From positions 186,001-250,000 of the forward strand of contig CAWJLW010000010.1 in assembly GCA_963843795.1 (NCBI GenBank): DNA of 64,000 nt, written 5' to 3'. Positions 36,129-61,370 of the stretch are shown here, one piece after another. Position 1 is the stretch's first letter. Each line of letters begins with the position of its first letter. The notes beneath the pieces are model-generated. The model was given only the letters and a program-made list of their open reading frames with translations, had not been told where the DNA came from and searched no databases. The DNA comes from an uncultured bacterium. GTDB taxonomy: Bacteria; Armatimonadota; Abditibacteriia; Abditibacteriales; Abditibacteriaceae. A program made the translations under genes and the position numbers.

Positions 36129-37462
36129 TCACTCGTCTTCGTAATCGCTCATATCGTCGCCCATGCCGTTGGCATTATTACCATTGGGGCTTTGGATGAA
36201 AGCGGTGCGCGTGGCACCGTCCCAACGCACGATGGCGCCGCCACTTTCGGCGATGAAGCGCAGCGGCACCAGCACGCTACCCGCATACAATCACCGGTGG
36301 AGCTTGGAGCGAAAAAATGCGGCCATTGAGTGGCGGCTTGGGCCACTCCGACTTGCATGAGCAATTGATCCTGACCCACGGTCGCTAAAATGGTGCGATT
36401 GGCCGCATTGTATTGAACGTGCGCGCCCATCGCTTCGAACACGCCGCGCAGTGGAACCATGACCGCGCCATTGACTTCGACCGCGCCGGGCAACATTTTG
36501 CCGTCAATCGAAACATTGACCGGGCGCACCGCAGCGCCAGAATTCGTGGTCGGTTGTGCGTTCATCACATCAAAGGCGAAAACGACAATCATTGAAGCGC
36601 CTTTAGATTTGCGATTGGCAACCGTCATCGAGTAATTTTGGTCGCCTTGGGTTTGGCCATTCAGCATTGCAGTCGCACCTTGCTTGGTGGATTCGGCAAT
36701 GCGCTGACCGGCGCCATTGCTAAGATAAAGGTCGATATCGGTGGCACGTTCATCACCACTACCAGCAAATATTAGGTGCGGTGCGGTCTCAAATTTCACG
36801 TTGGGAATTCGAGCTGTCCCGTCTTGTTTAAGAACGGTTCCATACATGGCCCACGCGTTGTGAGCGTGATGGAAGCGCAACAAATTATCGAGGCTTTTAA
36901 GCTCTGCGGTCATTCCTTCTTCGGGTTTGGCCGCTTCGTTGAGCACGCTTAGCGGCAACGCGTATCCACCAGTGCGCCGCATTACAACCAGTGCGCACAT
37001 GCCCGAAGCATTGCGCGATTTGCGCAAACGCATCAGCAAATTATAGTTTCCTGTTGACTGAGGCACGTAACTGATGACCGACGGTTTGTTGGTGGGGGCC
37101 ATATCACGCGACAACAGCTTCCCAACCGAATTAGACACTTCCAGATCGATATTTTGCACCGTTTTATCGCCCGCCGCAAATATCAAATATTCCACACCTT
37201 TTTCCAGCGGATGAGTGGAGCGAATGAAGTCGCCGCGCTTAAGAACAGCCAGACCAAAACATACGCCGGTATCGAATCGATAAGGTTTGCTCGCCACCAG
37301 ATTGCGTGCTGCGCCCATTACACGCGTAACCGCTTGTTCGGCCAATAGAAATTCGCTGCTCAAAGTGGCGTTTGCAACCCGCACATTCGCCATGAGACCC
37401 AGCGCACTTGCCAGTAAGCAGCAGAGCGCTTTGAAAATTTGACGCTTGTATTTGAGATTCAT
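36129..37462 (-). CDS. Exported protein with two PPC-like repeats and a copper-amine-oxidase N-terminal (stalk) domain (C-terminal frameshift)
   Basis: Signal peptide; two DIDL-type repeats; VMVPLRGVFEAMGAHVQY, then VLVPLRFIAE in a shifted frame. Confidence 0.72.
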
Positions 37463-37515
37463 AACCTTTTCCTTGAAGATCAACAATTCACGAATTCCTG
37501 ATGATATCCACTGCA

Positions 37516-39157
37516 TCACGTCCGCACCGCCACCCGATGGACGCGAACGTTTGGGCGTGGTGCGACGGGGTGTTGTGCGAGGGCGTGGTGGAGTGGTGTT
37601 GTGCGACGTGGCGCGGGACGGCTGGGCGTTGATCCGCGCGTGGTCGATTTTCTCTCAACCGGTTGGCTTTCACGTCGCACCGGTCTCGCGGTAGGTCTGG
37701 CCGTTGGCTTTGGTGTCGGTCTGGCCGTCGGTGTCGGTGCGGGCCGTTCGGTTGCCAGCGGCGTAATCGCCGGTTCGGGCATGTTGTTAATTGGGAAGCC
37801 ACTGCCAAACGACGGATCATCCGCGTTATCGTCTTTTTTCGTCCCGCTCGATGTGGGGGCCGAAGTGGATGCGGAAGCCGGCGCGCGAGTTGGTTCGCCC
37901 GACAAGGCTTCGGTCACCGGTGCGCGGGTAACGGTGTTGTCGGTCACAGCATTGGTGGCTCCAGCGCCAGTTCCACCGCGCGATGAGAGGGCGATAAAAA
38001 GCATCACAACCAAAAACGTCAGCGCCGCACCCAGCGCAATTTGGGGCGAAAGCCACGGCGGCGGCCACTGCATTGGTGCTTTGGCAATCGGTGACTTGCG
38101 AGAGTGAACCTTGCGAGAGTGGCGCTTGTGTGGTTGTTGCCTGGGGCACTTCGGAGGTGGGAACAATCAGGGAATTGGTTGGGTTGATGACGCCATTCAC
38201 TGCATCAGGGTGGTCGGCCACGCTGGTTTCGGGCTCTGAGGCGCGAGGTGCGCCTTTGGCAAACGAGGTAAATTCGCCGATGGTCGGCTCTTGCGATAGA
38301 TTTTGGCTGGGCAAAGCGACCACGACTTTCTCGGCTGGCAAGCTGGTCAGTGTTGGCTCGATGCTGGCGCGGAACTCCGCGACCGATTGAAAGCGGTCGG
38401 AAGCTTTTTTGGAAAGCGCTTTGAGGATGGCCGCTTCGATGGCGGGCGGCAGATCCTCGCTCAGTTCGCGCGGCGGGCGCGGCGCCAGTTCGAGATGCGA
38501 GCGCATGATTTCGTAATCGCTCGTCCCCGAAAACGGCACTTTGGCCGTTGTGAGTTCGTGCAGCAGAATTCCCAGCGCATAAATATCGCTGCGCGCGTCC
38601 TGCTCTTCGCCGCGCACCTGTTCGGGCGACATATATTCGAGCGTGCCAATGACTTTGCCGGTTTTGGTCAGATGCTGACCACCCATCACGCGCGCGATGC
38701 CGAAATCGGTGATTTTCACCAGACCTTCGTCGTTCAACATCAAGTTGGCGGGTTTGATGTCGCGGTGAATCACGTTGCGCGCGTGCGCGTGCTCGAAACC
38801 GCGCAGCGCCTGACAAAACCAGTCCAGCGCGGTGCGCAAAGGCAGTTTGCCCTCGCGTTTCAACAATTCTTCGAAAGTCGCGCCCTGCACGAACTCCATC
38901 ACCATGTAATAATCCTGCCCAACTTCGAGAAAGTTGTGCAGAATGGCGATATTGGGATGATTCAAACGCGCCAACGTCACGGCTTCGGAACGGAAACGTT
39001 CGAGCCAACCGGCGTCTTGCGTGGCGAAGCGGTGAAGTACTTTGAGCGCGACTTCGCGTTCGAGCATGGTATCGAGCGCGCGGTAAACTTCGCCCATTCC
39101 GCCCGCGCCCAGCTTGTTCTCGATGCGATATTGGCCAATCGTACTCCCGATCATCAT
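37516..39157 (-). CDS. Membrane Ser/Thr protein kinase (PknB-like; frameshift near 38090)
   Basis: LGAGGMGEVY, VALKVL, HRDIKPANL, DFGIAR, YMSPEQ; TM helix and Pro/Thr/Arg-rich tail in the next frame. Confidence 0.92.
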
Positions 39158-40245
39158 GCCGTTTCCTCCGCCGACAACGCAATTTCTCGCGCCGCTGGCA
39201 ATTCTTTGGTTTCTGGCAATTCCTTGGTTTCGGACAATTCTTTGGTTTCGGGTATCTCAACGTTCGGGGCTTCTTCCACATCCGACGGCTCCGACGCGGA
39301 AACTTCCGGCGTGGAAATTTCTGCCGTAGAAATTTCTTGCTTGGTCAGCTCGCGCGCGTGCAGAATGGCAACGGTGATATTGTCGTAGCCTCCGCGCGCT
39401 TTGGCTTGTTCGACCAAGGTTTCGCAGGCGGCTTGTGGCTCGTGGGCAAGTACTTGCGCGGCGATAAAATCGTCGTCGAGCAGATCGCACAAACCATCCG
39501 AGCACAATAAAAACCGATCATCATCGCGCACGATCATCGCTTCGCTCCAAACCTCGACTTCAACAGTGGGATGCAAACCCAAAGCGCGCGTGATCAGATT
39601 TTTTTCCGGATGATGGCGTGCCTGCTGGGTTGTGAGCGCGCCCTGTCGCACCATTTCCATGACCGCCGAATGATCTTGCGACAATTGATAAATCGCGCCG
39701 CCGCGCACCAAATACAAACGGCTATCTCCGACGTGCGCGGCAAACGCGTGGTGTCCGCGCACCAGAAGCGTCGTGCAGGTCGTGCCCATGCGATGTTGAT
39801 TTTTTTCCGCGCTGGCCGCACTATGAATCGCCGCATTGGCATTTTCCAACGCCGTGCGCAAAAGCTCGGTGGGCGCGTTCAAATATGGGGGCGCTGCCGC
39901 GTAATACTCGCGACACACGGTTTCGACTGCCAGCGCGCTGGCGATTTCGCCACCCGCGTGACCTCCCATGCCATCGGCCACGATTACGAAAACTCCGCGC
40001 TGCGCCCGCTCTGACGCGCTTTCGGGCACAATGGCACGCGCGCTATCTTCGTTGCCTTCGCGCACGCAACCCACATCGGTGTGCAAGCCGATCACGCACT
40101 CGAAAATTTCCTTGTCGGGGAAAATATCATATGGCGAAGAATCGCTTTGAGAAGAATCGAAAGATGGCGCTTCAACGGGCAATGCCTCGAATGCCTCGAA
40201 TGCCTCGTGAGTTTTGACAGCGCGCTTTTTCCACCAATCGAACAT
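39154..40245 (-). CDS. PP2C-family Ser/Thr phosphatase
   Basis: DVGCVREGNED, VADGMGGH, HVGDSRLY, LCSDGL, GYDNIT. Confidence 0.94.
   Translation of the reverse strand: MFDWWKKRAVKTHEAFEAFEALPVEAPSFDSSQSDSSPYDIFPDKEIFECVIGLHTDVGCVREGNEDSARAIVPESASERAQRGVFVIVADGMGGHAGGEIASALAVETVCREYYAAAPPYLNAPTELLRTALENANAAIHSAASAEKNQHRMGTTCTTLLVRGHHAFAAHVGDSRLYLVRGGAIYQLSQDHSAVMEMVRQGALTTQQARHHPEKNLITRALGLHPTVEVEVWSEAMIVRDDDRFLLCSDGLCDLLDDDFIAAQVLAHEPQAACETLVEQAKARGGYDNITVAILHARELTKQEISTAEISTPEVSASEPSDVEEAPNVEIPETKELSETKELPETKELPAAREIALSAEETA
39195..39252. repeat. In-frame 18-bp tandem repeat x3 (PETKEL)
   Basis: ctggcaattc(t/c)ttggttt-type units. Confidence 0.85.
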
Positions 40246-40379
40246 AATGAGCCTTTGTCAAATCGTAGATTTAGGTCATCGAACTCACTTCGCCGTTTTC
40301 AATCCAACGAAATTATCCCAGCAAGTACTTGCGGCAAGTATTTGCAAGCGGGAGCCCTTGGCAAGCTACTGACGGGAAG

Positions 40380-42194
40380 CTACTGCGCGGAATCTTGAGC
40401 GTTTTGATCGCCAGATTTTTCGTCGCCCGATTTGGCATCGCCGCTCGATTTGGCATCATCGCCCGATTCGGTGCTGGTTGCATCGGTACCCATGAGCTTG
40501 AGGCCGTAGCGAATCGGAACAGCGAAGTTCGCGCCTTGCACATCTTTCATTCCCGCGTAATGCACCGCGATGACGCGCCCGCGCAGATCGCACACCGGGC
40601 CACCGCTGTTGCCGGGATTCGTGCCCGCCGTGTGCTGATAAACGTCGCCCGCGATATTGACGTATTTGAGCGGATTGTCGCCGCCCTCGATGACGCGCGC
40701 GATAGTGCCGGTCGTAACGGTGGGTTCGGGCACAAAAATTACTTTGGATTTGTTGCTGCCCGATTGATCGCGCACTGCGGTCACGCCCGCGCCCAGTTCG
40801 CCCGCGAACGGATAACCGATGACGACCATCGATTTGCCCTGCTCAGCTTCTTCAGGCTCAGCGTTCAACTTCACGGCGGGCATTTTCGAGGGCAGATCGA
40901 CTTTAATGAGCGCGACATCGTGTTCATCCGAAGCGCGAATCAAGCGCGCGGTCGTGCTGTTTTTTTCTTTGGGAAAAGTCACTTCGAGATAATCGTTGCG
41001 CCCTTCTAAGGCCTTGCCGGTCAGGCTGCGACGCGAATCGCCATCCAGCGCATCGGCGGGAATCCAGTTGCTGGGGCCCGCATCGACTGTTCCAACAATC
41101 TTGAGCGAAACCTTGCCACCTTCCTGCGTGGGCTGCACCACAACGCCCGCGGGCAACGAAAGCGGCGAATACCACGGCGCGCCCACATGACGATTGGTCA
41201 GAATAAAGCCATCTTCGGTCACCACGAAACCGCTGCCCCCGCCGCTGCTGCCGATGGCTTTGTTGCCCTGCGAATCCAAAGTCAGCCACGGCTGATAGCT
41301 ACCGTCCTGATTCAGCACATAAGCCGCCACGCGCTGCCCTTCTTTGCCCGCCAAGTACTGGTGATAAACGATGCCGCCCGAATCGGTGTCGATGAGCTTC
41401 CAGCTCATTTTGATGAAAACGACACTCGGCACGACCTGCTTGGCGACTTCTGAAGCGGTGAGATAACGGTTCGATTTCTCGTCTTCTATCGACTGCTTGG
41501 TTTCGACGAGCTGATTTTCGGTCGATGCCAGCTTGCCCGCCAAAACTTCTTCCGAAGCGCGATTATTCCACGCCAGAAATCCCACCATCAAAGCTGCCGC
41601 GCACGCTAATCCCGCGCCGCCCCACATCATCGAACTGCGCGTATCCGATTTGGCGCGCGTGATTTCGCGCTCCAGCGTCGCCTTGCCCACCCCTACTTTA
41701 GCGGGCTCGTTCGTAACTGGAGTGGCCGGAACAGCTGGAACAGAAGCAGACGGAACAGCGGCAGAAGCCATGGGAGTTGCGGGCAGGGGCGAGCTTTCGC
41801 GTGTGGAAGGCGCGACAGCACCCACAGCTTCAGTTGCACGCGTCGCGGCGAAAGCGTTGGGACGCGGGTCGAGGTCGAACTGAAATTCCGGGCCGCCCGC
41901 TCCGAACTGCACCACGTCGCCCGGCTGCAAAACGGTTTGACCGCTCACGCGCTGTTTGTTGAGAAAAGTCCCGTTGCGGCTACCCAGATCGTGCAAGAGA
42001 AAACGCGTCGGATCGGCAGAGTCGCGCACGATACGAGCCTGCTGACGACTGACCAAGTCGTCCTGCTGAGGGTCGTAGCGGACATTGGCAGACGGATCGC
42101 GGCCCAGAGTCAGTTCGGAATGTTCGGCGATTAAAAACTCATCGACCTGATCGCTTTTGGAACCACTCAAATGCCTGAGAACAATTCGCTCCAT
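40380..42194 (-). CDS. FHA domain + TM + trypsin-like serine protease
   Basis: LGRDP...VSRQQA...DLGSRNGTFLN (FHA); GSGFVV, TNRHV, DVALIK, PGNSGGP. Confidence 0.92.
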   Translation of the reverse strand: MERIVLRHLSGSKSDQVDEFLIAEHSELTLGRDPSANVRYDPQQDDLVSRQQARIVRDSADPTRFLLHDLGSRNGTFLNKQRVSGQTVLQPGDVVQFGAGGPEFQFDLDPRPNAFAATRATEAVGAVAPSTRESSPLPATPMASAAVPSASVPAVPATPVTNEPAKVGVGKATLEREITRAKSDTRSSMMWGGAGLACAAALMVGFLAWNNRASEEVLAGKLASTENQLVETKQSIEDEKSNRYLTASEVAKQVVPSVVFIKMSWKLIDTDSGGIVYHQYLAGKEGQRVAAYVLNQDGSYQPWLTLDSQGNKAIGSSGGGSGFVVTEDGFILTNRHVGAPWYSPLSLPAGVVVQPTQEGGKVSLKIVGTVDAGPSNWIPADALDGDSRRSLTGKALEGRNDYLEVTFPKEKNSTTARLIRASDEHDVALIKVDLPSKMPAVKLNAEPEEAEQGKSMVVIGYPFAGELGAGVTAVRDQSGSNKSKVIFVPEPTVTTGTIARVIEGGDNPLKYVNIAGDVYQHTAGTNPGNSGGPVCDLRGRVIAVHYAGMKDVQGANFAVPIRYGLKLMGTDATSTESGDDAKSSGDAKSGDEKSGDQNAQDSAQ

Positions 42195-42393
42195 AGCACA
42201 ACTCCTGAGAATCAATTTTTCGCATCAACGCCAGCGCGCTACATTCGGATTTCTGCACTATCACCCGAACATGGCCTTATTATGAACCATACCAACAAGA
42301 AACACAACACATTTTTCAATCGAACAAGTTCACAAGACGCTTTTATCTATCGAATTGCCTGATTTACAAGTGCTGCTCAGCAACAAATCCCAC

Positions 42394-44977: not shown

Positions 44978-45601
44978 GGCAAGTACTTAATCTATCTAAA
45001 GGCGTATCCTCTTTGCGCCTTCAGCTCTACCTCATTCTTTACTTTGGCTTAAAACTAACTATTGAGTTAAAGCTAAATCCAGATCACTTTTTCTGTGACA
45101 AAATTTAGTTTAAAACAAATATGCAACAGTCAAATCTGAAGGTTTACACCCGATTTCCTCAAGCAGTTCCCTGAAGTGCATGGTTTCCGACAACTATCTT
45201 TGCCTCATATCCCGTAATCATGACACGCACACAAGTGTCCGAAACTCTGGCGCAAACCATCAGATATTTAGAAAACTGCTTGCCAAAAAAGTTGTCATTG
45301 AGCGACATCGAGAATTACCTGGGCACCCCTAACCTTCCCCCAGATGGCTCTACAGATGTCTCTAGATCGCAGCACTTCTCTTTTCCTACCACTTTAATAA
45401 CACAAAAATTAATACTAATCAAATACTGGTAATTTTATGCGCGCCAAATTTGGATCGAAACGTTTATCGATAATTTGATGAAGGCTGTCTTATAAATCAC
45501 ACTTCACATTTTACTATTTGCCACTTAACATACAAAAATGTTTTCTGTTATATTTAGACGACTTCTGTCATGTTACAGAATTTATATCAGAAGGAAAATT
45601 T

Positions 45602-48600
45602 ATGTCAAAAAAGTGCTTCGATTCGAATTTTCAGGCCACAGTACGCTCCTTGGCTACCACTGGCCAATGGTCAAGGTTTTTTATCCTCGCAATGACAATT
45701 GTCGGGTTCTTCCTGGGTACAAAAGCCAAGCATGTGTGGCGCGCAACTCCTTCTCACAGCAATAGTTCGATAAGCCTCTTTTCACTTAACAAACCTGACT
45801 CAGCTCGCAAACCATACGGGCTTCGATTGGCAGCTTTGGACACGCGTAAAAACGAAGCTAATGAGAGCGCTGTTCCGACTTCTGTACGATACGAAGTGGC
45901 ACATATCGAGCAGCGGGCACGGGCACGGTGGATCAAAAATAACCCAACATTGGCGCGGTCGGCAGCGCGGTCGGGGATAAGGCTGGCTCCTATATAGAAG
46001 TTGCCCACTTGCTTCCCGAGCGCGATTGGAATGGCTTATCTTCCGAACATCGCGGCATGATTCGCCGCCTGATGCTAGGCGCACGCGCAGGCAAGGTCGG
46101 CGTTATGCCGTGCTTCGCACCTGGTACTAATCTCAAAACAGTGCGCGCTTTCGAAAGCGCAAATAGCCAGTTGCAGTTCTTCCGTGCTTCGAACTACTGG
46201 AGCAGCACATCGGCAGGGGCACATGCTGCGGGCGCCACAATGACACTGCGTTGGAGCATTGTGCCGGATGGAACGACACTGCCCAATGGAGCCGGTGAAA
46301 CCACGGCCCCTTCCAATTTAAAAGCTCGCCTCAATCAGATTTACGGCAACGAAACGACTTGGCGCGCCCTGTTTCGCCAAGTTTTCGCGCGCTACTCTGC
46401 GCTTTCAGGTATCACATACCTCGAGGAAACCAATGACGACGGCGTACCCATTACTGATACCAACACCAATCTTGGTGTCGCTGGTGTACGAGGCGATGTC
46501 CGTATCGGAGGTCATCATATTGATGGGAATAGCGGCATCTTAGCCTACAACTATTTCCCCAACAATGGCGACATGGTCATCGATACCAACGACACTTTTT
46601 ACAACAACACAAGCAGCAGTTCGCTGGGATTTCGCAACGTGTTAGCGCATGAGCACGGACATGGTTTGGGCTTTGCCCACGTTTGTCCCACCAATCAAAC
46701 CAAATTGATGGAGCCGTTTGTTTCCTACCAATTTGACGGCCCACAAGCCGACGATTTGCAAAACCTACAGCGCGGTTACAGTGACCCAACGAACCCAACA
46801 ATACGCAGGCCACCGCGACCGATTTGGGTAACTTGGGCAACGGCACCGTTTCGCGCACCAACATTTCAATTCACAATACCGCAGACCAAGACTTTTTTCG
46901 CTTTGCTACCAGCGGCACCAAGCTGCTGACCGCTACAGTGCGCCCCATTGGGGGCAGTTACCTTGAGGGCGCACAAAATTCCGATGGCTCCTGCTCGGCG
47001 GGCACAACCTTCGATGCTCAGGCACAACGCAACTTGAAGCTGGGGGTTTATGACAAAAATGGCAACGAGTTGGCGATTGCCGATGCCAACGGCACAGGGA
47101 GCATCGAAACATTATCGGGCGTTGCGTTGAATGCCAGTGCGGGGCCTTTCGCAGTGCGGGTGGCAGCTGATGCCGTGGACAAAATTCAGCTCTACAGTCT
47201 GGAAATCAACTTGGTCGATTCAGGTCCAGCGGCTTCTTTTATCACCAATGGTGCTCCCATAGTTAATGACAGCACAGGCAACGGCAATAATAATGGCAAG
47301 CCCGATCCAGGGGAAGCCAGCGTAAATCTCAGCATTCCGATTCGCAACAACGGCACTTTGGACGCCACCAATGTGCGCGCCACTCTGGTTTCGCTTTCCA
47401 GTGGAATCACAGTGACCCAAGCCAATTCGGCTTATCCTAATCTGGCCCAGAATGCCACCGGCAACAACACAACGCCCTACATAATTTCAGTGGATGCCAG
47501 TTTTGCATGCGGTAACAACATCGCGTTGCGGCTTGATGTGCAAAGCGATCAGGGCAATAGCCCAGTGAGCTTCTCACTTTCTACGGGAAGCACGGTAGCA
47601 AACGACATTTTCCTACTCGGGTTCGGCGGTTCCGATTCCCGATGGAAACGGCACTAGCTCGCCTTCTCCTGGTGCCGCTGTAGAAGTACCTGTTACCGTC
47701 AGTGGATCGGGTAAGATTACGGACATTGATCTCGTGCTAAACGATGTGAGACATTCTTACGTTGGCGATTTGGTTATCACGCTGATTTCGCCGACCGGTA
47801 CACAGCTTCAAGTCGTGGTCAACATGAATGATGGCGCAAACCTGACACAAGGCCCCAATTTCCTCAACACAGTTTTGGACGACGCGGCCAGTTCCAGCAT
47901 TCAAAGCGCCACTAATGCGCAAGCTCCTTACACTGGTTCTTATCGTCCGGCCAACCCATTGAGTGTTTTCAACGGACAAGACGCCAACGGAGCTTGGAAA
48001 CTGCGTTTTCAAGACTTTTATGCGGGTGACGTAGGAACAGTCAACGCTTATTCGCTGCGTATTTCGACCACAGTCTGTGGCACTCCCGTAACCAGCACGC
48101 CTCCTGTAGTTGATTTGAACGGACCCAATAATGCGGGAATTGACAACAATATCACTTACAATGAGCGCCAATCTCCTCTAGCTATCGCCGCTGCCGACGC
48201 CACAATTTCCAACGATCCGGGCGAGAACCTGCAAGTGATGACGGCCACGATCACCAATCTCAAGGACGGCGACTTAGAAAAGTTAGTAGTCAGCACTTCG
48301 GGCACCACGATTTCGCAAGAATACAACGCCGCAACTGGCACTCTGACACTGCGTGGCCCCGATTCGGTGGACAACTTCCAAAAAGTCTTGCGCTTGGTTA
48401 AATATCGCAACTTATTCGACAATCCCGATACCACACCGCGCCGCATCGAAGTCGTGGCTGGCGACGGTTTCGCCAACAGTGCGGTAGCGATCACAACGGT
48501 CAACATCGTTTCGATCAATAATGCACCGGTGGCCTTGGTGACGACCGATGCAAACAACGCCCCCATTGCACAAACTACTACTCAGAACACACCGCTCACT

Positions 48601-50009
48601 TTGAGCAGCACCAATGGCAACCAAATCGGCGTCTTTGATCTCGACGACGGAGGTAACGTTGAAGAAGTGCAAGTGAGCGTGCAGAATGGCACTTTGACTC
48701 TCAATGGCACAACCGGCCTCACTTTCACCCAAGGCGACGGCACTGCGGATGCAACGATGACTTTTCGCGGCACGGTCAATCTGGAAAACAACCAGATCGG
48801 CGGCAATGCCAACCGAGCTTTGAACGGCATCGTTTACACGCCAAACACCAACTTTACCGGTGCCGATACCCTGACCCTCAACATCAACGATCTGGGCAAT
48901 ACCGGAACCGGCGGCGCGCTGAGCGGCACAGCCACCCTCACCATCAATGTCGTTCCACAAGTGGCTACTACCGGTGCGATTATCAGCGAATTCCGCTTAC
49001 GTGGCACGACTTCCAACGATGAGTACGTTGAAATTTACAACACGACCAGCGCGCCGCTGAGTATTGGAGGCTGGTCGATTGCGTATCGAACCGCAGCTGG
49101 CGATGCCACAACCGCAGTTCCATCCAACACGATCCTGCCCGCAGGCGGCCACTTCCTGTTCGTAGGTAGCGGTTACACACTGACAACTTTGGCTGCTGGA
49201 AATGCCACTATCGCTAATGATATCCTGGACAATTCAAGTCTGGTGTTGCGCAATGCTGGGGGCGTCACGCAAGATGCGGTAGCGTTTTCGGGTTCGGGTT
49301 CCACAGTGGCGGGCGAGGGCACAGCGCTTCCCGCGCCCCCCAACACCGCTGGCGAATACGCTTTTGTGCGCGATGAGTCGACCGGCGCTCCCCAGGATAC
49401 CAACAACAACGCCGCCGACTTTCTCTTCGTCTCGACCAACGCTGGCCTCTACAACGGTCGCCAATCCCAACTCGGCGCACCCGGCCCCGCCAACCTCAGC
49501 AGCCCCGCTCTCACTCCAGCACTGACCGTGAGTGGCATCGACCCCAAGGCCGACATCAACTACTCGCCCAACCGCATCCGCGTGGCCGCAACCACCCCGG
49601 CCGCTACCAACGCCACATTTGGCACGCTCATCTTCCGGCGCAACCTCAAGAACAACACCGGCAAGACCATCACCCGCCTGCGCTTCCGCTTCTCGCGCCT
49701 GACTACGCTCAACAGCCCCACCCTCAACCCTAGCTCAACCCAGGCCGACCTGCGCTTTTTGAGTTCGAGCAGCGGTACGGTGCCCTCGCGCGATGGCAGC
49801 AGCACACTGTCTTATGTCGGCACCACACTGGAGGAGCCACTGGCACAGACTTGGGAGGCGGAGTCAACTCTTCGGCCAGTGGCTTCACCACCGTCACCCT
49901 GCCCGCGGGCCTGGCTCCGGGAGCCAGCGCCAACTATCAGTTCGTGTTCGGGGTCGAGAAAAACGGCGGATTCACCGCTATCTTCAACATCGAAGCCCTC
50001 AACGATTGA
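45602..50009 (+). CDS. Large secreted matrixin (M10-like) metalloprotease with PPC, proprotein-convertase P, cadherin-like and lamin-tail domains (several indels)
   Basis: PCFAPGT, HEHGHGLGFAH (46648-46680) and LMEP Met-turn; HSYVGDLVITLISPTG...GAWKLRFQD; IISEFRLRG..DEYVEIYN. The frame restored by comparison with the duplicate ends IEALND* at 50009. Confidence 0.8.
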
Positions 50010-50054
50010 ACACAAAGTGACTTGGAAATTAACACATTCGACAATTTGTAGACA

Positions 50055-50090
50055 CAAAAGCGCCCTGCAAGTACTTGCAGGGCGCTTTTG
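50055..50090. terminator. Palindrome-centred terminator
   Basis: caaaagcgccct-gcaagtacttgc-agggcgcttttg. Confidence 0.85.
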
Positions 50091-50460
50091 GTATTTGTAT
50101 CACAGCCCAGAATCTCGGAGGCCTTGGTTGGATGCTATAAAACCCTCTCACTGGCTGCATTGACTTGCATACCTCAACAACAGAAGTTTCTACCAATGAA
50201 TCACTCACATCACTTGTGGGAAATATTTTTTGCATTAAGTGTAAAGCGCTTTACTACAGGGGAAAAATAATTTTTATATTCTTAATAAGGTGTGCTACAA
50301 TACACGAAACAATTCGAAAATTCGGTTGGACAAATGTCCTGCCCCCTACAATCCAGGGGCGCAAGTTCGCACATTACTTGATTTAATGCTGAAACATTGA
50401 CTATTGCAAACGGTAGGTAGTTATACCAAAGTTTACAGATCGTCTGAGAGGAGTATCATT

Positions 50461-53004
50461 ATGAGAAAACTGTTTGGTGACGGGCACTGCCCGCGTATAG
50501 AGCCTCGCCGGGGTATAGGGCTGATAGCTGGAGTATTGGGCTTGATTATGGGTACGGCTCAAGCAGACCCTTTTGCAGCGGGCAATGTGGTGATTTACCG
50601 TGTCGGTACGGGCAGTAGCGCGCTATCGGGAACGGCAACGGAGGTATTTTTAGACGAATACACCACCAGTGGCGCTCTGGTGCAATCCCTCGCGCTGCCC
50701 ACGGCAGACGCGAGCGCGAATCAAACGCTGACGGCTTCGGGCACAGCGACTTCGGAAGGTCTCATCTCGCTTTCTAAAGACGGCAGGTTTATCTTGCTGA
50801 CTGGCTACGACGCTCCAGTGGGCACGGCAATGGTGAGCGCCAGCAACACAAACAGCATATTGAGAGTAATCGGTCGAGCAGCGTCCAATGGCACGATTGA
50901 TACCTCCACTACAACTACAAGTTTCAGCGGCACCAATATCCGCAGCGCTGCTTCTTCTGATGGCACCAATTTGTATGCTACAGGGGGCAATAGTGGAGTT
51001 GTGCTTCAAGCTCTGGGTAGCAGTGGATTGGGTACTTCCATCAGTACGACCTTTAATAACTTGCGTCAGATCAACATCTTCAACGGGCAGCTTTACGTTT
51101 CCTCCACCTCAGGCTCTGGGCTAGCTACCGTGGGCAGCGGCGTGCCCACTACCACTGGGCAGACCACCACTCCGGTAACAGGAATTCTGACCACCCTCAA
51201 TTTGAATCAGTTTGTGCTCTTAGATCGTGACACGGGCATTCCAGGGCCAGATACGCTTTATATCGCGGACGAGTCCGCGCTGATTCGCAAATATTCTTCC
51301 GCCGACGGCACCAACTTCACAGAGAAAGGTTCGGTTGCTTTAACTTCAGTGCGAGGTCTAACAGGGGCCGTATCAGGCAACAACGCGGTTTTGTATGCCA
51401 CTAACGGCAGCACTCTGGTTTCGCTGACAGACAGCGCCGCCTTCAATGCCCCGATGACTCAAAGCGCTCCGACCGTGCTGGCCACGGCACCCACCAACAC
51501 CGCTTTTCGTGGCATTGCCTTCGCTCCGGCAGCTCCGACTATCACCGGCTTCACACCGACCAGCGGCGCACCAGGCACTTCGGTGACAATTACCGGCACT
51601 AACTTTACCGGCGCGACGAGCGTGAGTTTCAACTATGTCAGTGCCACGTTCACCGTCAACTCCGCAACGCAGATCACTGCTACGGTGCCCTCCAACGCGG
51701 GCACTGGAAAAATCCGTGTCACGACGCCCGTTGCTACCGCCACCAGCGCGGCCAACTTCACACCCATCTTGCCCGTTGCTACTACAGGTGCAATTATCTC
51801 CGAGTTCCGTACGCGTGGTATCAATGGCGCCACCGATGACTATATCGAGCTTTACAACACCTCCAGTACCCCAATCAACATCGGAGGATGGCGCTTGGAT
51901 TACGTCGGCATCGTTGATCGAAACCCACCCCCAGGCATCCAAATCAACCCGATCCAAACCGACCTGAGTGACCCTGGCTTCACTCTCCCTGGCTCCACTT
52001 CATCCGGCTCCTTCGTCTCCAAAAGCAGCACTTTCGCGGCACGGCGCCCCGCGATGATCGCCACGCCTTCTCTGGATTTCATTACGGCTACCGAAGACCA
52101 ATCGACCACCATTCCCGCGAACACTGTCATTCCTCCGCGCGGTCATTATCTGCTGACCGGCAGCGGTTATTCTTTGACTGCTACTGCCAGCAGCAACCAG
52201 TCACTGGCTAATGATATCTTGGACAATTCAAGTCTGGTGTTGCGCAATGCTGGGGGCGTCACGCAAGATGCGGTAGCGTTTTCGGGTTCGGGTTCCACAG
52301 TGGCGGGCGAGGGCACAGCGCTTCCCGCGCCCCCCAACACCGCTGGCGAATACGCTTTTGTGCGCGATGAGTCGACCGGCGCTCCCCAGGATACCAACAA
52401 CAACGCCGCCGACTTTCTCTTCGTCTCGACCAACGCTGGCCTCTACAACGGTCGCCAATCCCAACTCGGCGCACCCGGCCCCGCCAACCTCAGCAGCCCC
52501 GCTCTCACTCCAGCACTGACAGTGAGTGGCATCGACCCCAAGGCCGACATCAACTACTCGCCCAACCGCATCCGCGTGGCCGCAACCACCCCGGCCGCTA
52601 CCAACGCCACATTTGGCACGCTCATCTTCCGGCGCAACCTCAAGAACAACACCGGCAAGACCATCACCCGCCTGCGCTTCCGCTTCTCGCGCCTGACTAC
52701 GCTCAACAGCCCCACCCTCAACCCTAGCTCAACCCAGGCCGACCTGCGCTTTTTGAGTTCGAGCAGCGGTACGGTGCCCTCGCGCGATGGCAGCAGCACG
52801 CTGTCTTACGGCGGCACCACACTGGAAACGCCACCGACACAGGATTTGGGAGGCGGAGTGAACTCTTCGGCCAGCGGCTTCACTACCGTGACCCTGCCCG
52901 CGGGTCTGGCTCCAGGTGCCAGCGCCAACTATCAGTTCGTCTTCGGGGTTGAAAAGAATGGTGGATTCACCGCCATCTTCAATATCGAAGCCCTCAACGA
53001 TTGA
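50461..53004 (+). CDS. Secreted protein: beta-propeller-like N-terminus, IPT/TIG, lamin-tail domain, shared C-terminal module
   Basis: GAGGAG RBS; signal peptide ending AQA; NVVIYRVG..VFLDEYT; PTITGFTPTSGAPGTSVTITGTNF; IISEFRTRG..DDYIELYN; ends IEALND. Confidence 0.85.
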   Translation: MRKLFGDGHCPRIEPRRGIGLIAGVLGLIMGTAQADPFAAGNVVIYRVGTGSSALSGTATEVFLDEYTTSGALVQSLALPTADASANQTLTASGTATSEGLISLSKDGRFILLTGYDAPVGTAMVSASNTNSILRVIGRAASNGTIDTSTTTTSFSGTNIRSAASSDGTNLYATGGNSGVVLQALGSSGLGTSISTTFNNLRQINIFNGQLYVSSTSGSGLATVGSGVPTTTGQTTTPVTGILTTLNLNQFVLLDRDTGIPGPDTLYIADESALIRKYSSADGTNFTEKGSVALTSVRGLTGAVSGNNAVLYATNGSTLVSLTDSAAFNAPMTQSAPTVLATAPTNTAFRGIAFAPAAPTITGFTPTSGAPGTSVTITGTNFTGATSVSFNYVSATFTVNSATQITATVPSNAGTGKIRVTTPVATATSAANFTPILPVATTGAIISEFRTRGINGATDDYIELYNTSSTPINIGGWRLDYVGIVDRNPPPGIQINPIQTDLSDPGFTLPGSTSSGSFVSKSSTFAARRPAMIATPSLDFITATEDQSTTIPANTVIPPRGHYLLTGSGYSLTATASSNQSLANDILDNSSLVLRNAGGVTQDAVAFSGSGSTVAGEGTALPAPPNTAGEYAFVRDESTGAPQDTNNNAADFLFVSTNAGLYNGRQSQLGAPGPANLSSPALTPALTVSGIDPKADINYSPNRIRVAATTPAATNATFGTLIFRRNLKNNTGKTITRLRFRFSRLTTLNSPTLNPSSTQADLRFLSSSSGTVPSRDGSSTLSYGGTTLETPPTQDLGGGVNSSASGFTTVTLPAGLAPGASANYQFVFGVEKNGGFTAIFNIEALND

Positions 53005-53019
53005 ACACAAAGTGACTTG

Positions 53020-53091
53020 GAAATTAACACACATAAGTTGCAGGTGAGAAGAGAGTTTTCTTCTCACCTGCAACTTATGTGTGTTAATTTC
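53020..53091. repeat. Perfect 33-bp inverted repeat with 6-nt loop
   Basis: gaaattaacacacataagttgcaggtgagaaga-gagttt-tcttctcacctgcaacttatgtgtgttaatttc. Confidence 0.92.
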
Positions 53092-53156
53092 GCTTTGCAA
53101 CCTGTGGTTTTTACGTCATAATATCTTAAACTGCAAAAAGTGGAAGGAGATTGACA

Positions 53157-53381
53157 ATGACAGCTTATGACCAAAACGTATCGGAATTTGATGGCACTCC
53201 ACCGTCCGCTACATGTGGAGTGACAAAGCGTCTTTACAAAACACCCAGCTTGAGTTTCAATGGAAAGCTGGAAAGCGTGACCTTGCAATACGCTTTCGGC
53301 GCTGATGGAGTATGCGCTCCAGGAGGTCAAGGCTTTGACGATACGGCACCCAATTACGATCCTGACTGCACTGGTATGTAG
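53157..53381 (+). CDS. Putative lasso-type RiPP precursor peptide (74 aa)
   Basis: AAGGAG RBS; leader YKTPSLSFNGKLESVT matches YxxPxLxxxGxxxxxT; near HPr-type kinase, PqqD and nucleotidyltransferase genes. Confidence 0.78.
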   Translation: MTAYDQNVSEFDGTPPSATCGVTKRLYKTPSLSFNGKLESVTLQYAFGADGVCAPGGQGFDDTAPNYDPDCTGM

Positions 53382-53398
53382 ACTGACCGCCAATTGTT

Positions 53399-54366
53399 GT
53401 GGATTACAACGTTTATAATTTGATCGTGCGCTGCGATTTGCCGTTGCCGGATTTATTTCCGCCAGCGGCGACTTTGTCTGTGCTATCGGGGGGTTGCACA
53501 AACGGCATTCCTGACATCGTGCTTCGAGAAGGCGAGGTAATTTTCCCCTCAGTAATTCCGGTTGATGCACATTACGTCAAGATCACCCGCAGCGAAGCGT
53601 GGCTTTTCTGGCCCCAAGTCGGCGCTTTTCATCTGATCACGGGCCAAAAAATCATCGTAGAGCCAGTCCAAAAGGTGACGCTACAACACGCTCTGCGCCT
53701 GTCTATCAGGCCCGGTGATGGCAGTGGCTTTGTATCAACGTGGACTTTTGCTTTTGCACGCGAGTGCAGTTGCTTTGAGCAATAGCAACGGTTCGTGGGG
53801 CGCAGTGGGGTTTTTGGGAAATTCGGGTGAAGGCAAATCGACAATGGCAGCCACCCTACATGCGCGCGGTCACCTTTTGATGACGGACGATTTTCTGGCG
53901 GTGCCGACTTTGACATCCAGGGGAAATTTCCCATTGGTCGCGCCAGGAGTAGGGCAGTTGAATTTATGGCCAGAAACATTGGAAGCGCTTTGCAATTTTC
54001 AATCTTTCACTCATAATTCGACTAACGAATCAGCATACCCACAATTATGGGCACACGAAGACAAGCGTGTATGGCGCACTGAGGAAAGATTTGCTAACCA
54101 ATCGGTACCTCTACGCAGGCTCTATATTTTAGAAACTAACGATGTAGTTGCCTGTCAAAAGCTGTCAACGGCACAAGCCCTGAAACATTTGATGCAACAT
54201 TCCTATTGTGCTGGTTTTCTCCCATCCTGTGGAAATGGCGCAGCATTTCAAAGAATTAACAGCGCTGATAGAACACGTATCAGTGTCTCGCCTGACAAGG
54301 CCCCGTGATTTGAGAAAGTTGAGCCAGGTAGCTCAAACCGTTGAAGACGATTTTTCCACACTTTAA
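53399..54366 (+). CDS. HPr kinase-like protein (lasso-cluster kinase type; frameshifted)
   Basis: YNVYNLIVRCDLPLP; QRGLLLLHASAV; GNSGEGKST Walker A; LMTDD; LTRPRDL tail. Confidence 0.82.
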
Positions 54367-54437
54367 CACCATCGCACGGGTAAAGAGTGCTGTGCAAGTA
54401 CTTGCAGAGAGTGTTCAAGTTCGTGACAGGAAAACTT

Positions 54438-56373
54438 ATGTTTAAAGCCACCATCACGTTCGTAAGTCCAATCGTAAGGCGCAACCGCTTGGATTCACAA
54501 AATAAGGTCGATATTTTCATTCTGTTAGCGCTTAGTTGTGCTTGGTTTTCGATGCCCGCAGGAGCAGCACCAACCTTGTCAAACCAAAACAAAGTTGACG
54601 GCGAAGTGAGATCGGGCACAGCGAATGATGCCGCACAGAATGCAGCTGGATATATTCTCATCAGCGAACTGCGCACTCAAGGGCCAAATGGCGCGCGCGA
54701 CAGCTTTGTGGAATTGGCTAATACTTCTGCGCAGAAAGTAGAAATCAGTGGTTGGTCGTTGAATTTCGAGGCTGCCGACGGAGCGTTCAAGATTCAAATT
54801 CCCCACGGCATCTCGATTCCTGCTTATGGACATTTTCTGCTGGCAGGCGCCCAATACTCTCTGGCGAGAGAATACTCCTGCCGATTTAAAAATCGAACGG
54901 TCTTTCACAGGTGGCGTTCAACTACGCGATGCACAAAATCGCCCCATCGATGCCGTTGGCCCGCGACGCGCCAGCAGTGCGTTTCGGGAAGGCGACGGTT
55001 TGGATGACGCTTTTTTCAATGAAACAGTCGTGCTTTCTTCATCAAAACTTCTGCAAGAACAATTCTCCTGCGTGCGCCGCTTCGAAGTTGGCAAATTGAA
55101 AGACAGTAACGATAACCAAAATGATTTTGTCTTCGTCAGCACTCTCGGTAAAATAGGGAAAAGTGCCGTGAGTATCGGCGCGCCTGGCCCTGAAAACCTC
55201 CATAGCCCACCGCTGAACCAAGTTTCGCCCAATCCAAAACCTTTAAACGTCTCACAGCCAGAAGCCCAAAATGCCAATGCTGCAAAAGTTATTGCGGCGA
55301 ATAGTTCTACGTCTCATTCGGCGACATCGCCAGTTGAAGTTTTTCATCGCCCCGCGCTGCGAGACCCCGAAAATGTGGGAATTAACAAAACGTTTGGCGT
55401 GCTCAAGCTGCGCTGTCGTTTGGTCAATATCACCGATGATCCCATCACACGATTAAATTTCCGTATCAATGGCATTACTAACATTCCCACTTCCGACGGC
55501 ATCGACGAAGATGTCGCTCAGACTGCCGATGTGCGCCTGCTACCAGCCTTCAAAGAAAGCAAACCAGATAGTATCAGCAACACCTCTTCAAACCTCAAAA
55601 GCGATAAAAACGAGCCGAAACTGTGGGAAGCGGTTTTGGATGAACCGCCGTTGCAACCTTTGGGCGGTGGTTTCAACTCGCGCGTCACCATAAATTTACC
55701 CAAAGGTGGCTTAATGCCGGGAGCGGCGTGCGATGTGGAGTGGGATTTAGGGGTTGAGCGGCGCGGACACTATCAAGTGATTTTAGATAGCGAGCATTTT
55801 CATATCACCTTCGACGGTGATACCGAAGATATATCACGCTCTACACTGCTGAACCACCAAAACGTTGCTTCCGCAGAAATGGGACTCACTAATGGATACA
55901 ATCCTGCGCCGCTTTCTTCCGCCAACAACGCGCGACCTGTTGACAATAGCCCCTCGCCTTCAAAAACAACGACAAATCCCACGCAGATCCCTCGTAGCCA
56001 GCAGGCTTCTGTGGCGACTGCCATTATTATCTTCGAGGGCAACACCGAAGACGAATTTGAACCAGTTGAACCGACGCACTCGACACTAACTATTTCTTCG
56101 TTTCAGGTTCGAGGTCAAACCATCGCACTGCGCTTTGGCGGCGCACTCGACCCGCAAAGCGCCAGCGATATTGGACACTATACAGTGCAAATCAATGGCG
56201 AAACGGTTGAATTAGAAAGCGCACAGTACGATGTCGGAAGCAATACGGTCTCTCTGTTATTACCTCAGGGCGCAGCCAAGCGCGGCGATACCGTTTTTGT
56301 CCAGTGGGTCGCTCTCAAAGACACCAAAGGTGGCGTTTTGAATGGGCAAGCTGGCCCTGCCAAAGTGTCCTGA
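54438..56373 (+). CDS. Secreted lamin-tail-domain protein with a diverged copy of the shared module and an Ig-like C-terminus (frameshift near 54870)
   Basis: LISELRTQGPNGARDSFVELAN; GAPGPENLHSP; ITRLNFRI; ADVRLL; DEPPLQPLGGGFNS; LGVERRG. Confidence 0.78.
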
Positions 56374-56377
56374 TTCG

Positions 56378-56758
56378 TCATTTTAGCTTCTGACAAGTAC
56401 TTGTAGAGGCAATAGAGGGAGTTTCAATGGTAATGAGTTCGGCTTCAATCATTGCACTTAACAAAATCATCAGATCGCTTTCAAGAAGCTCGGTATCTAC
56501 CTCATAAAGTTTCAGTAATTCACGATGAATGTCACAAAAAGCCAGTGGGACTTCGATAAGCTTCCATAGGGCGACACCGACTTCGTCCAGCGTGTAATAT
56601 GAGCCGCTGGACAGTTGCAACAAAACCACTTCATCAGCGAGTTGGCACGACACGACCTCATTCTCGCCACGAGAGCATACCATCGAAGCCTGTGAAATTG
56701 CCGTCTGCACATCCATTTGCGAAAGAGTTGCTTTATCCATTCCACCAAGTTTATCCAC
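56378..56758 (-). CDS. PqqD-family protein (RiPP recognition element)
   Basis: VSCQLADEVVLLQLSSGSYYTLDEVGVALWKLI...LLKLYEVD...D...L...ELI. Confidence 0.88.
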   Translation of the reverse strand: MDKLGGMDKATLSQMDVQTAISQASMVCSRGENEVVSCQLADEVVLLQLSSGSYYTLDEVGVALWKLIEVPLAFCDIHRELLKLYEVDTELLESDLMILLSAMIEAELITIETPSIASTSTCQKLK

Positions 56759-56790
56759 AAAATAGTCCTCAAGCTCGGACTCGCCCGATT

Positions 56791-57899
56791 ATGCCATTAT
56801 CTTCAATATCAACTTCAAACAGTGAGTTAATGGCGCGTGCACTCAAAGGTTGTTGGCGTGCTTCACCACCGCCCAACGAAATTGAAGCGGAGCTATGGCC
56901 ACGACTGACACCTTTGCTGATCGGCTCGGGCGCGGGTGCATTGGCGTGGCGCCGTCTGCGTGGCGAAATGCAGCACGAATTGCCTGCAGGTGAGGTATCA
57001 GACGTTGCGGCGCTGCGCGAGTCTCATCGCACGCAGGCATTGCACACTTCACTTCAGGAGCGCCTAATTGCCAGCGTCTTCGTTCGTTTGCAACAACATA
57101 GCCTCGCGGCGATTCTGCTCAAAGGTTGGTCGAGTGCGCGCTTATATCCCGAAGCTGGTTTGCGACCTCTGGGCGACATCGACCTTTTGGTGCAACCCTC
57201 TCAAAAAGAGTTGGCAGGCCAAATTTTGCAGGTGAATGTCGATGATGAAAGCCAGGCCGAAGGCTGATTTTATCGACACAAAATCTGGCGTTACGCCCGA
57301 TTTATGGGTTCGACGAGACGCGTGTCTGGCAGGCGTGCCAAACCGTGACTTTGCACGGTGCGCCGCTTGCGCTTTTGTGCGAAGAAGATCAATTGCGGAT
57401 GTTGTGTCTTCATTTTCTGCGTCACGGAGGCTGGCGCCCTTTGTGGTTGTGCGACATCGCCGTCGCTTTGGAAGCGCGTTCTGACGATTTCGATTGGGAA
57501 CGCTGTCTGGGCCAAGACCGTCATCGTGCCGATGCCATCGCCTGCGCTCTGGGCTTGGCCCATCAATTGTTGGAGGCGCGTATCGACGACACGCCCATCG
57601 CACAACGGGCACGCGCTCTGCCTTCGTGGCTGGTACCAGCCGTTTTGCGGCAATGGGAAACTCCACTGCTGAGCCAACATCAGGTGCCGGAATTAATGAG
57701 TAGTTTGCTGCAGCGTGGTCAGATTGTGCGAGCGCTGCGCGAGCGCTGGCCCAATGCCATTGAAGCCACGGTGACACAACAGGCCTCGTTCGACCGGCCT
57801 CCTGTGGTGTCACAAGTGCACTGTTTCACTCAAATGAGTTGGAATTTCCTCAAACGCGTGCCACAGACCAAACCCAATGCGAACAAAATGCTGCCTTAA
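56791..57899 (+). CDS. Uncharacterised nucleotidyltransferase family protein (NTP_transf_5-like; frameshifted)
   Basis: ILLKGWSSARLYPEAGLRPLGDIDLLV; LCLHFLRHGGWRPLWLCDI; DFDWE. Confidence 0.85.
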
Positions 57900-60172: not shown

Positions 60173-60250
60173 ATTCTAGATACTGACGTGCTCCCCGAAA
60201 GAGTCCTCGATTATAAAATAGAGAGCAAGGGCCAAATAAGGAGCAGGAAG

Positions 60251-60517
60251 ATGAAAGGGAGCCGTTTCAGCGAAGAACAGATCATCGGGATCATCAAGCA
60301 GCAAGAAGGTGGGCGCACCACCGCCGAGGTGTGCCGCGAAGCGGGCATCAGCCAGGCGACTTTTTACGCCTGGAAAGCCAAGTTCGGTGGTATGAGCGTC
60401 AGCGATGCCCAACGCCTCCGCCAACTCGAAGCCGAGAACGCCAAGCTGCGGCGCGTGGTCGCCGATCTGACTATGGACAACGTGGCGTTGAAGGATGTGG
60501 TCTCAAAAAAGTGGTGA
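60251..60517 (+). CDS. IS3 transposase OrfA
   Basis: [16 protein letters not shown]...[20 protein letters not shown]...[10 protein letters not shown]...KKW; ends at AAAAAAG. Confidence 0.93.
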
Positions 60518-61370
60518 CGCCACCACCCGCAAGGGGTACCGGCTAAAAAGCAGGTGGCGGGCTACTTACAAGAAACAGCTATGGCTTTGTCCCAGCGACG
60601 GGCGGCGACTCTGGTCAAAACCGCGCCGCGGGTGTTGCGTTACAAAAGCAAGCGAAGTGACGATGCGCCTATCCGAACTCGGCTGCGCGAGTTGGCGAGT
60701 GAGCGTCCGCGCTGGGGCTATCGGCGTTTGCACGTATTGTTGCGGCGCGAAGACGTGGCTAATCAACCGCAAGAAGACGCATCGGCTTTACCGCGAGGAG
60801 AATCTGCACCTGCGCCCCAAAAAGCGCAAGCGCCTCACCAGCAGTGCGCGTGTAATGCCCGGAGCACCCACAGGTATAAACCAAACGTGGACGATGGATT
60901 TTATCCATGACAATCTGGCCAATGGGCGCACCTTTCGGGCTTTGAATGTGATGGATGCCTGGAGCCGCGAAGCTTTGGCCATCGAAGCTGATACCAGTTT
61001 GAATGGCGCACGCGTGGTGCGAGTGTTGGACGAGTTGATTGCGCAACGGGGCAAGTCTGGGTTGATTCAGGTCGATAACGGCGCGGAGTTCCGGGGCATT
61101 GCTCTCGACCAGTGGGCATATCGCCATCAAGTGAAGTTGCACTTTATCGAACCGGGCAAACCGACTCAAAACGGCAAGATCGAATCGTTCAATGGCAGGT
61201 TGCGCGATGAATGTCTCAATCAGGAATGGTTTGCTTCACTCTTCCACGCCCGCTGTGTGTTGGCGGCGTGGAAAGAAGATTACAACACCGTGCGGCCACA
61301 CAGCGCACTCGACTACCAAACGCCCATGCAATGGGCGCAATCTCAAACCGAGGTCTCTACTTTTGAGTGA
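60505..61370 (+). pseudogene. IS3 transposase OrfB, disrupted by a 16-nt insertion and a +1 indel
   Basis: [54 protein letters not shown] spread over three frames. Confidence 0.8.

Follow-up and report, generated by a model that had tools for sequence, protein, structure and literature searches.

Organization of a peptide cassette in the window

The DNA analysed here (hereafter, the window) is a 64,000-nt stretch of contig C10 (G000:C10:186001-250000) from the genome of an uncultured bacterium of the family Abditibacteriaceae; the genome is 92% complete. Behind a gene for a large predicted-secreted surface protein lies a cassette that encodes a precursor peptide, an HprK-like kinase, an accessory predicted-secreted protein, a stand-alone recognition element (RRE, or B1) of the kind that serves peptides made on the ribosome and modified after translation, and a nucleotidyltransferase (NTase) (Table 1). 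An initial annotation had offered two explanations for these genes: a new disulfide-containing lasso-peptide subtype with remote maturases, or a cyclase-free, RRE-dependent peptide system tied to capsule assembly. On balance, and by a modest margin of confidence, we favor a form of the second explanation: the cassette would be a cyclase-free satellite whose product is likely a linear phosphorylated, possibly phospho-glycosylated, peptide and not a lasso. The observations behind this reading are the genes themselves, the absence of a local cyclase or B2 leader peptidase, a separate kinase clade, cores of relatives that are incompatible with a lasso ring, and a constant place behind a surface-protein gene.

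Table 1. Features of the cassette and of the DNA just upstream of it (window positions).
Feature	Position	Strand	Remarks
Large predicted-secreted protein, LTD plus unnamed C-terminal domain (predicted beta-sandwich)	50404-53004	+	PF00932, E 3.6e-10
20-bp hairpin	53032-53079		behind the stop codon of the upstream surface protein; probably its terminator
Promoter-like pair TTGCAA-16-CATAAT	53095-53122	+	consensus match only
Ribosome-binding site AAGGAG	53144-53149	+	7 nt before the precursor ATG; consensus match only
Precursor peptide gene	53157-53381	+	74 aa: 43-aa leader and predicted 31-aa core
HprK-like peptide kinase	53399-54366	+	split among three frames by breaks near 53700 and 54240; intact Walker A, His and DD motifs
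Accessory predicted-secreted protein	54438-56373	+	hydrophobic N-terminal stretch, LTD, same C-terminal domain, SWM-like repeat; one break near 54865
Stand-alone RRE (PqqD/B1)	56378-56758	-	intact; start may be 56722; PF05402, E 5.7e-11
NTP_transf_5 NTase (PsmN-like)	56791-57899	+	two breaks near 57265-57295; GDIDL (DxD) intact

The precursor gene had been recognized in the initial annotation by its exact YxxPxLxxxGxxxxxT leader, and this holds: the motif begins at 53235 and places Thr at -2 and Leu at -1, so that the leader has both the YxxPxL element and the Thr -2 expected of a lasso precursor. The core had also been described accurately (31 aa, Gln1, Asp7, Cys10, Cys28 and a TGM end); Ala3, Gly8, Val9, Thr20 and Thr29 complete the list of residues discussed below. 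Five of its 31 residues are Asp. None is Ser, and hence the C-terminal Ser that serves as the kinase site in paeninodin-type lasso peptides is missing. A six-frame search of the 4.3-Mb genome gave eight instances of the strict leader pattern; six of these, that of the window among them, fall in open reading frames of about 90 codons or fewer. Promoter-like sites resembling the pair ahead of the precursor number 10 in the region, against 4.7 expected.

The HPr-type kinase, PqqD-like RRE and NTase that had been noticed near the precursor were all borne out by domain matches or motifs. The kinase scores under the Pfam and NCBIfam cut-offs; its Walker A motif, the His of HASAV and its DD motif are present. 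HprK-related kinases (TIGR04352) are also found together with PqqD-family proteins (TIGR04353) in the three-part HPr-rel-A cassettes, for which we know of no product. Membership in that group was rejected for the window: a piece of its kinase scores 23.5 bits against a TIGR04352 cut-off of 200 (intact relatives, 21.6 and 30.8), and its RRE had no match to TIGR04353.

The RRE supplies the B1 element of a lasso cluster, at 43 bits against PF05402 (cut-off 23.4), and can be aligned with PbaB1 (9x90) and TbiB1 (5v1u) at E values of about 1e-9. Its gene is divergent from that of the NTase and inverted relative to those of the precursor and kinase. When the alignment is read against the residue list in PMC13381572, the pocket residues appear hydrophobic, with an Asp at the putative Tyr-binding position. 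The NTase matches PF14907 with E values of 4.6e-15 and 2.5e-08, and its nearest relatives lie in two metagenome loci, L210 and L211. The initial annotation had missed the breaks in the kinase, NTase and accessory-protein genes, the minus-strand placement of the RRE, the lack of Ser in the core and the presence of a lasso cluster elsewhere in the genome.

A complete lasso cluster elsewhere in the genome

By gene content the cassette is not a lasso cluster: it has neither a B2 nor an Asn-synthetase-like cyclase. That neither is visible in the window had been stated before, and in fact none was found anywhere on contig C10. A search of the genome for remote copies, which the initial annotation had called for, yielded one of each, both on contig C6. 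Queried with Pfam models, four other B2 sequences and custom-built models, the 92%-complete assembly yielded no other B2 or lasso cyclase. A second PF13471 match (C6:232237) proved to be a generic transglutaminase-like gene, and a third PqqD match (C6:3465251) is part of an unrelated operon.

The two enzymes belong to a complete lasso cluster (G000:C6:549048-558291; L012:9049-18289) that sits inside a second polysaccharide locus and has the gene order B1-B2-C-A1-A2-A3-K-ABC-N. Its cyclase scores 678 bits against NF033535 (cut-off 525), its B2 exceeds the NF033537 cut-off, and B1, B2 and cyclase are intact. Two of its three precursors are identical, and the third has a pair of tail Cys; Asp9 and a terminal Ser are common to all. 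This cluster is an ordinary member of the paeninodin/pseudomycoidin type, and similar clusters occur in six other genomes of the family. The window peptide, alone of its type, could be cyclized in trans by such enzymes.

No ABC exporter match was found at the window cassette or at three related loci (L041, L045 and L206). The sole match to the SipW-like peptidase model TIGR02228 lies on C6, far from the cassette, and scores 39.5 bits, below the cut-off of 51.85; by Pfam, no SipW-like peptidase was present in L041 or L045.

Cyclase-free relatives

Does the window cassette derive from the C6 cluster? Among 31 genomes of the class, seven have a lasso cluster like that on C6, and four (G000, G010, G021 and G022) have a second kinase; all four of the latter also hold a full lasso cluster. 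In each of the four, the second kinase lies amid LTD surface-protein genes and has a precursor, an RRE and an NTase for neighbors; the sequence covered at these loci contains neither a B2 nor a cyclase. The window kinase forms a clade of six with those of L041 (in G021), L045 (in G010), L206, L210 and L211, and no member has a cyclase in the sequence covered. Trees were built on 70 and on 33 of 173 rows; Shimodaira-Hasegawa support for the clade was 99 in the former, and support was 99/99 in the latter. A topology that forced the window kinase together with the C6 lasso kinase was rejected (approximately unbiased test, p-AU 2e-5). By this phylogeny, the window cassette is not a copy of the C6 cluster. 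The kinase clade and the cyclase-free loci support the notion of a cyclase-free RRE-dependent system, which had been the second alternative of the initial annotation.

The trees of the other genes are less clear-cut. In the RRE and B2 trees, the cyclase-free loci do not form one clade, and the window RRE sits on a long branch. In the NTase tree, the window groups with L210 and L211, and the G010 and G022 enzymes fall in another clade; the cassette is thus a mosaic.

The gene order of the window recurs in L210 (kinase, LTD protein, RRE, B2 and NTase), which contains in addition an intact B2 (97 bits against NF033537, cut-off 33) and no cyclase. L211 has a surface gene, precursor, kinase and NTase, and its contig ends shortly after. 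The G010, G021 and G022 cassettes are intact and lack a local B2, and in two of them the RRE is inverted. Stand-alone lasso B2 genes do occur at L076:9919-10383 (G010), L089:1426-1845 (G021) and L082:9474-9950 (G003). No RRE, cyclase or precursor lies near them; those of G010 and G021 come after aroC and a gene for a bifunctional nuclease.

Cyclase-free loci of other kinds were also encountered. In a different cassette (L039:8050-10639; also L040 and L043), which adjoins a large surface protein, the RRE carries a fused Cys-rich peptide tail, the kinase belongs to another family and the NTase falls in the clade of the window's. Five further loci (L117, L224, L239, L243 and L252) show RRE, B2, kinase and NTase matches, of which L243 and L252 have only some, without a cyclase in the sequence covered. 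Their cores are Gly- or Gly/Arg-rich and lack a ring acceptor. Their kinases lie outside the window clade, and so loss of the cyclase seems to recur.

Comparison of the cores

Seven window-type precursors were available for comparison: five beside clade kinases, L046 (by similarity to the window precursor) and L302 (by way of its accessory protein). An acidic residue at core positions 7-9, which would be the ring acceptor of a lasso, is present in only one of them, the window's own with its Asp7, and absent from the other six. Neither Asp9 nor a terminal Ser is found in any of the seven. Thr is present in all, Asp-Pro and Leu -1 in six, a Gln start in five and two Cys in three. The 14 distinct lasso-cluster cores of the family look very different: every one combines Gly5 and Asp9 with a terminal Ser, and Asp-Pro is absent throughout.

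A wider set was assembled from the pattern-matching precursors of 14 own or family loci, 77 others (80 minus three duplicates) and 80 further ones. In it, 94 distinct cores lie within 9 kb of a cyclase, and 80 of these have Asp or Glu at positions 7-9 (six exactly at 7). The initial annotation had considered the Gln start, length, Cys residues and non-Ser end of the window core unusual; all are common in these 94 cores, of which 12 start with Gln, 51 have at least 30 residues, 41 have at least two Cys and 59 end in a residue other than Ser (35 end in Ser). Only one lacks Ser altogether. A Gln start, the length and two Cys are thus ordinary in this kinase family, and the absence of Ser is the rare trait. 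Because the loci are related, these counts serve as a description and not as a statistical test. A Fisher p of 8e-4 is likewise not used as a probability, given this kinship and the part that neighborhood played in defining the group. The leaders differ as well: scored against the leaders of cyclase-free loci, the last 11 residues of the window leader reach 21.8, compared with 10.6 when the lasso-cluster leaders are used.

A constant link to surface-protein genes

All seven precursors lie 94-693 nt behind a same-strand gene that ends in the unnamed C-terminal domain listed in Table 1, and no lasso-cluster precursor is so placed; nearness to surface-protein genes is partly how the window-type group was first seen. 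The accessory gene has its EGNT/DGDT motifs at 55807 and 56029. In L210, the place between kinase and RRE is taken by its orthologue (35-52% identity). The window and L210 proteins each carry two copies of an IFEGNTED-like motif. This motif also ends a small predicted-secreted protein at the G021 and G010 cassettes, and a looser form, read by eye, is present in G022. The EGNT pattern is restricted to the accessory gene in G000 and to these cassettes in 2.8 Mb of loci. In all, a secreted protein with the motif accompanies the cassette at five of the six clade loci and a lone precursor in L302.

When the G010 accessory protein was searched against the 31 class genomes, it matched G010, G021, G022, a weak, stop-interrupted sequence in G019 and the new locus L302, where a surface gene, accessory gene and precursor occur with no enzymes; this query did not match the window's longer form. 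An atlas search with the same protein gave a best score of 0.85, no family and no usable structure match. AlphaFold modeled the last 300 residues of the window accessory protein as a beta-sandwich without a clear match, at a mean pLDDT of 48. A fold search returned only generic beta-sandwiches (best Z 6.4, root-mean-square deviation 3.0, 96 aligned), with cohesin/Ig-like rows tied below; on this result, a role as a cohesin or in donor-strand exchange is no more than conceivable. We tentatively take the shared C-terminal domain to be a beta-sandwich, on a model of low confidence.

The genes had been described as interleaved with a surface protein and wzc/wza. The surface protein proved to be a conserved member of the cassette. 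The tie to capsule assembly, in contrast, is weak: of the four genome loci with an enzyme cassette, only the window and L206 have wzc nearby, and none was detected out to about 30 kb from the remaining two. The best reading is that the cassette is linked to surface-protein genes more than to wzc/wza.

Two surface-protein genes precede the cassette in the window (45518-53004, + strand). The first, of matrixin-like (M10)/P-domain/LTD type, occupies several frames; the second is the LTD gene of Table 1. A near-identical stretch occurs in both, at a spacing of about 2,994 nt, as is evident from identical opposite-strand open reading frames at 49173-49805 and 52167-52799.

A proposed pathway and its alternatives

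In the favored, cyclase-free reading, the RRE would bind the YxxPxL leader and the kinase would phosphorylate the core at Thr20 or Thr29, which must be the target because the core lacks Ser. There is precedent for such a target in BsfK, an RRE-stimulated kinase that acts on an internal Ser and will take Thr, but not Tyr, in its place (PMC10368454). The NTase would then add a hexose to the phosphate in the manner of PsmN, a member of the same family that is required for this step (PMC6993621). A B2-type protease would cut after Thr-Leu. Such an enzyme is encoded in cis in L210 and perhaps by the stand-alone genes in G010 and G021; among the enzymes found in G000 and G022, only that of the lasso cluster could serve. 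Export would fall to the C6 ABC transporter, with the Cys10-Cys28 disulfide perhaps forming at that stage. Full lasso clusters of the C6 type, present in all four genomes, could lend both B2 and exporter. Finally, the product would function on the cell surface alongside the LTD protein family and the EGNT accessory protein, as gene order alone suggests.

Several observations weigh against this reading. No peptidase or exporter is encoded at the window cassette, and no second B2 was seen in G022. The window core is alone in its type in having an Asp in a ring position (Asp7-Gly8), and the genome does have a cyclase. A word-seeded search of 5.8 billion proteins with the precursor (lengths 40-130) returned only the precursor itself, and the window-type cores cannot be aligned with each other. 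Enzymes and precursors do not always travel together: L210 has the enzymes and no precursor in 15.9 kb of a 19.4-kb contig, and L046 and L302 have precursors without enzymes. Five of the seven loci come from one genus, L046 and L302 have no kinase to place in the clade, and the seven are kin, so the counts are not independent. In a related system (PMC13381572), LppK did not accept Thr and LppN was inactive in a heterologous test. Lastly, the cassette contains five breaks within 4.7 kb (53700, 54240, 54865, 57265 and 57295); none is spanned by a near-strain contig among those listed for run X1, and thus the window copy may be dead.

A more ambitious version of the cyclase-free reading, possible but considerably less likely in our judgment, is that the cassettes represent an undescribed Gram-negative class of linear Thr-phosphoglycosylated peptides that borrow the lasso B2 and exporter in trans. 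Co-expressed with the LTD proteins and the EGNT partner, these peptides would have a structural or tethering role at the surface and would not be antibiotics.

We find it doubtful that the window encodes a true lasso matured in trans, in which Gln1 and Asp7 would close a seven-residue ring, Cys10 and Cys28 would form a disulfide, the C6 B2 and cyclase would act, and the local kinase and NTase would tailor the product. The remote maturases that this part of the initial annotation supposed do exist on C6, in intact form, and the leader register is the same as that of the C6 leaders (Tyr -17, Thr -2). Asp7-Gly8 is in place, and position 7 is occasionally acidic beside cyclases. Moreover, the window and C6 RREs both appear to have the Tyr-binding Asp (by the residue list cited above), which makes cross-talk conceivable. 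The novel disulfide lasso itself fares poorly, however. The window core has Val9 where the lasso cores of the family have Asp9, six of its seven-member type cannot form a 7-9 ring, fewer than half of that type carry two Cys, and the end of the window leader groups with the cyclase-free set. With five Asp in 31 residues, one at positions 7-9 is unsurprising.

The breaks raise the question of decay. An ancestral kinase-accessory-RRE-B2-NTase cassette might have lost its B2 in the inversion of the RRE, with other genes broken since. The number of breaks, the lack of a B2 where L210 has one, the inverted RRE on its long branch and the loss of Ser from the core are all consistent with such a relic, as is an IS3-family transposase pair 2.3 kb downstream (60188-61370, + strand; NF033516 over cut-off), between wza and a carbamoyltransferase gene. 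Against this, all five breaks are frame changes that leave the catalytic motifs intact, and the intact G010, G021 and G022 cassettes lack a local B2 as well, two of them with the RRE inverted. Breaks are also dense across the neighborhood, in wzc, wza, the matrixin-like gene and the carbamoyltransferase gene. A codon-model scan predicted 16 frame changes in the window, and 11.8 per 100 kb on C10 compared with about 5 on C6; the scan missed the five cassette breaks, and its counts are therefore rough. In two neighboring broken genes, near-strain contigs (run X1) carry indels that restore the frame, at 49849 and 59600. Given the local density of breaks and these restoring indels, the cassette breaks are likely assembly errors. 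In the NTase, seven of ten listed differences between the near strain and the window are synonymous, with 54 further differences beyond those listed. All told, we think a decaying relic improbable.

Equally hard to credit is a peptide that keeps its leader and, bound to the RRE, serves the kinase and NTase as a substrate with a regulatory or carrier role in surface-protein or capsule assembly or glycosylation, with no free product: the lack of a local peptidase or exporter at five of the six clade loci, the low complexity and variability of the cores and the steady company of surface-protein genes and the EGNT protein would suit it, but all seven precursors retain the Thr -2 that B2 recognizes (partly by construction, as the search pattern requires it), a B2 lies inside the L210 cassette, G010 and G021 keep stand-alone copies, and no mechanism connects a cytoplasmic RRE system to secreted proteins.

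Comparison with known systems

The closest published parallel to the cyclase-free reading is that of the clusters for linear polyphosphorylated peptides (LPPs), which combine a kinase, RRE and NTP-transferase without a cyclase in capsule loci; the example is lppA-K-B-S-D-N of Paenibacillus alginolyticus (Popov et al. 2026, PMC13381572). LPP clusters resemble the window in their YxxP leader, discrete RRE, HprK-like kinase and NTP transferase, in their capsule-locus setting beside a kinase-bearing lasso cluster, and in their variable core. They differ in having a SipW-like peptidase and an MsbA-like exporter, both of which the window cassette lacks locally. Their leader reads YxxPxVLxHQxIxFETxxS, with Ser3 in the core, whereas the window has the B2-type leader and no Ser. 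As described there, LPPs are restricted to Bacillota, to which the window host does not belong, and the window is further set apart by its association with LTD surface proteins and with the EGNT accessory protein. By this comparison, the window system would work like an LPP cluster but is not a member.

The paeninodin and pseudomycoidin lasso clusters (PadeK/PsmK and PsmN; PMC6993621) and the C6 cluster share with the window the leader grammar, RRE fold, kinase family and NTP_transf_5 enzyme. Unlike them, the window lacks B2, cyclase and ABC transporter, its kinase and NTase fall in other clades, and its core has neither Asp9 nor a terminal Ser. The Bsf cluster of Bradymonas (PMC10368454) has a Gram-negative host and an RRE-stimulated, Thr-tolerant kinase that acts on an internal residue, as is predicted for the window; it is described as a lasso cluster, however, with its site at Ser3 and Ile at -2, compared with Ala3 and Thr -2 in the window.

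Other features of the window and related genomes

Upstream of wzc (36149-42215), translations indicate a row of genes for a Ser/Thr kinase, a PP2C-like phosphatase and an FHA-plus-trypsin-like protease, several with predicted breaks. At 25447-27165 on the minus strand, GTP cyclohydrolase I (FolE) is matched in two stretches around an in-frame insert of about 330 aa, which by eye looks like an intein with an endonuclease domain. Elsewhere in G000, two more lasso-type leaders lie at C6:1683100-1683750 (L014:8157 and 8614), between an ABC permease gene and a CrtC-like gene. Their cores are Gly/His/Cys-rich or Cys/Pro-rich and have no acidic residue at positions 7-9 and no maturation genes nearby. 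A similar precursor occurs in G012 (L079), where the same CrtC-like gene has a kinase gene about 4 kb away; in this 93%-complete genome, no lasso B2 over cut-off and no lasso-type cyclase were found.

Significance

Cyclase-free cassettes of this general kind have already been published; the new element is the constant company of an LTD surface-protein family and an EGNT accessory protein. Searches of an open-access library, at the level of listings and abstracts, turned up no description of the cassette in this lineage or with LTD proteins. The cassette arrives at a cyclase-free kinase/NTase peptide system by a second and independent route. It also poses a question of pathway discrimination, as a true lasso cluster and the cassette share a YxxP leader in a little-studied phylum; with the same YxxP leader on C6 and in the window, the Tyr/Trp rule of the published work cannot apply.

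According to PMC13381572, no biological role is known for paeninodin-type lassos or for LPPs. The surface-protein family and its accessory partner provide a concrete genetic link, and the Ser-free core predicts a Thr target. If the structural or tethering reading is true, this system would allow the function of phosphorylated lasso-like peptides in capsule loci to be tested directly.

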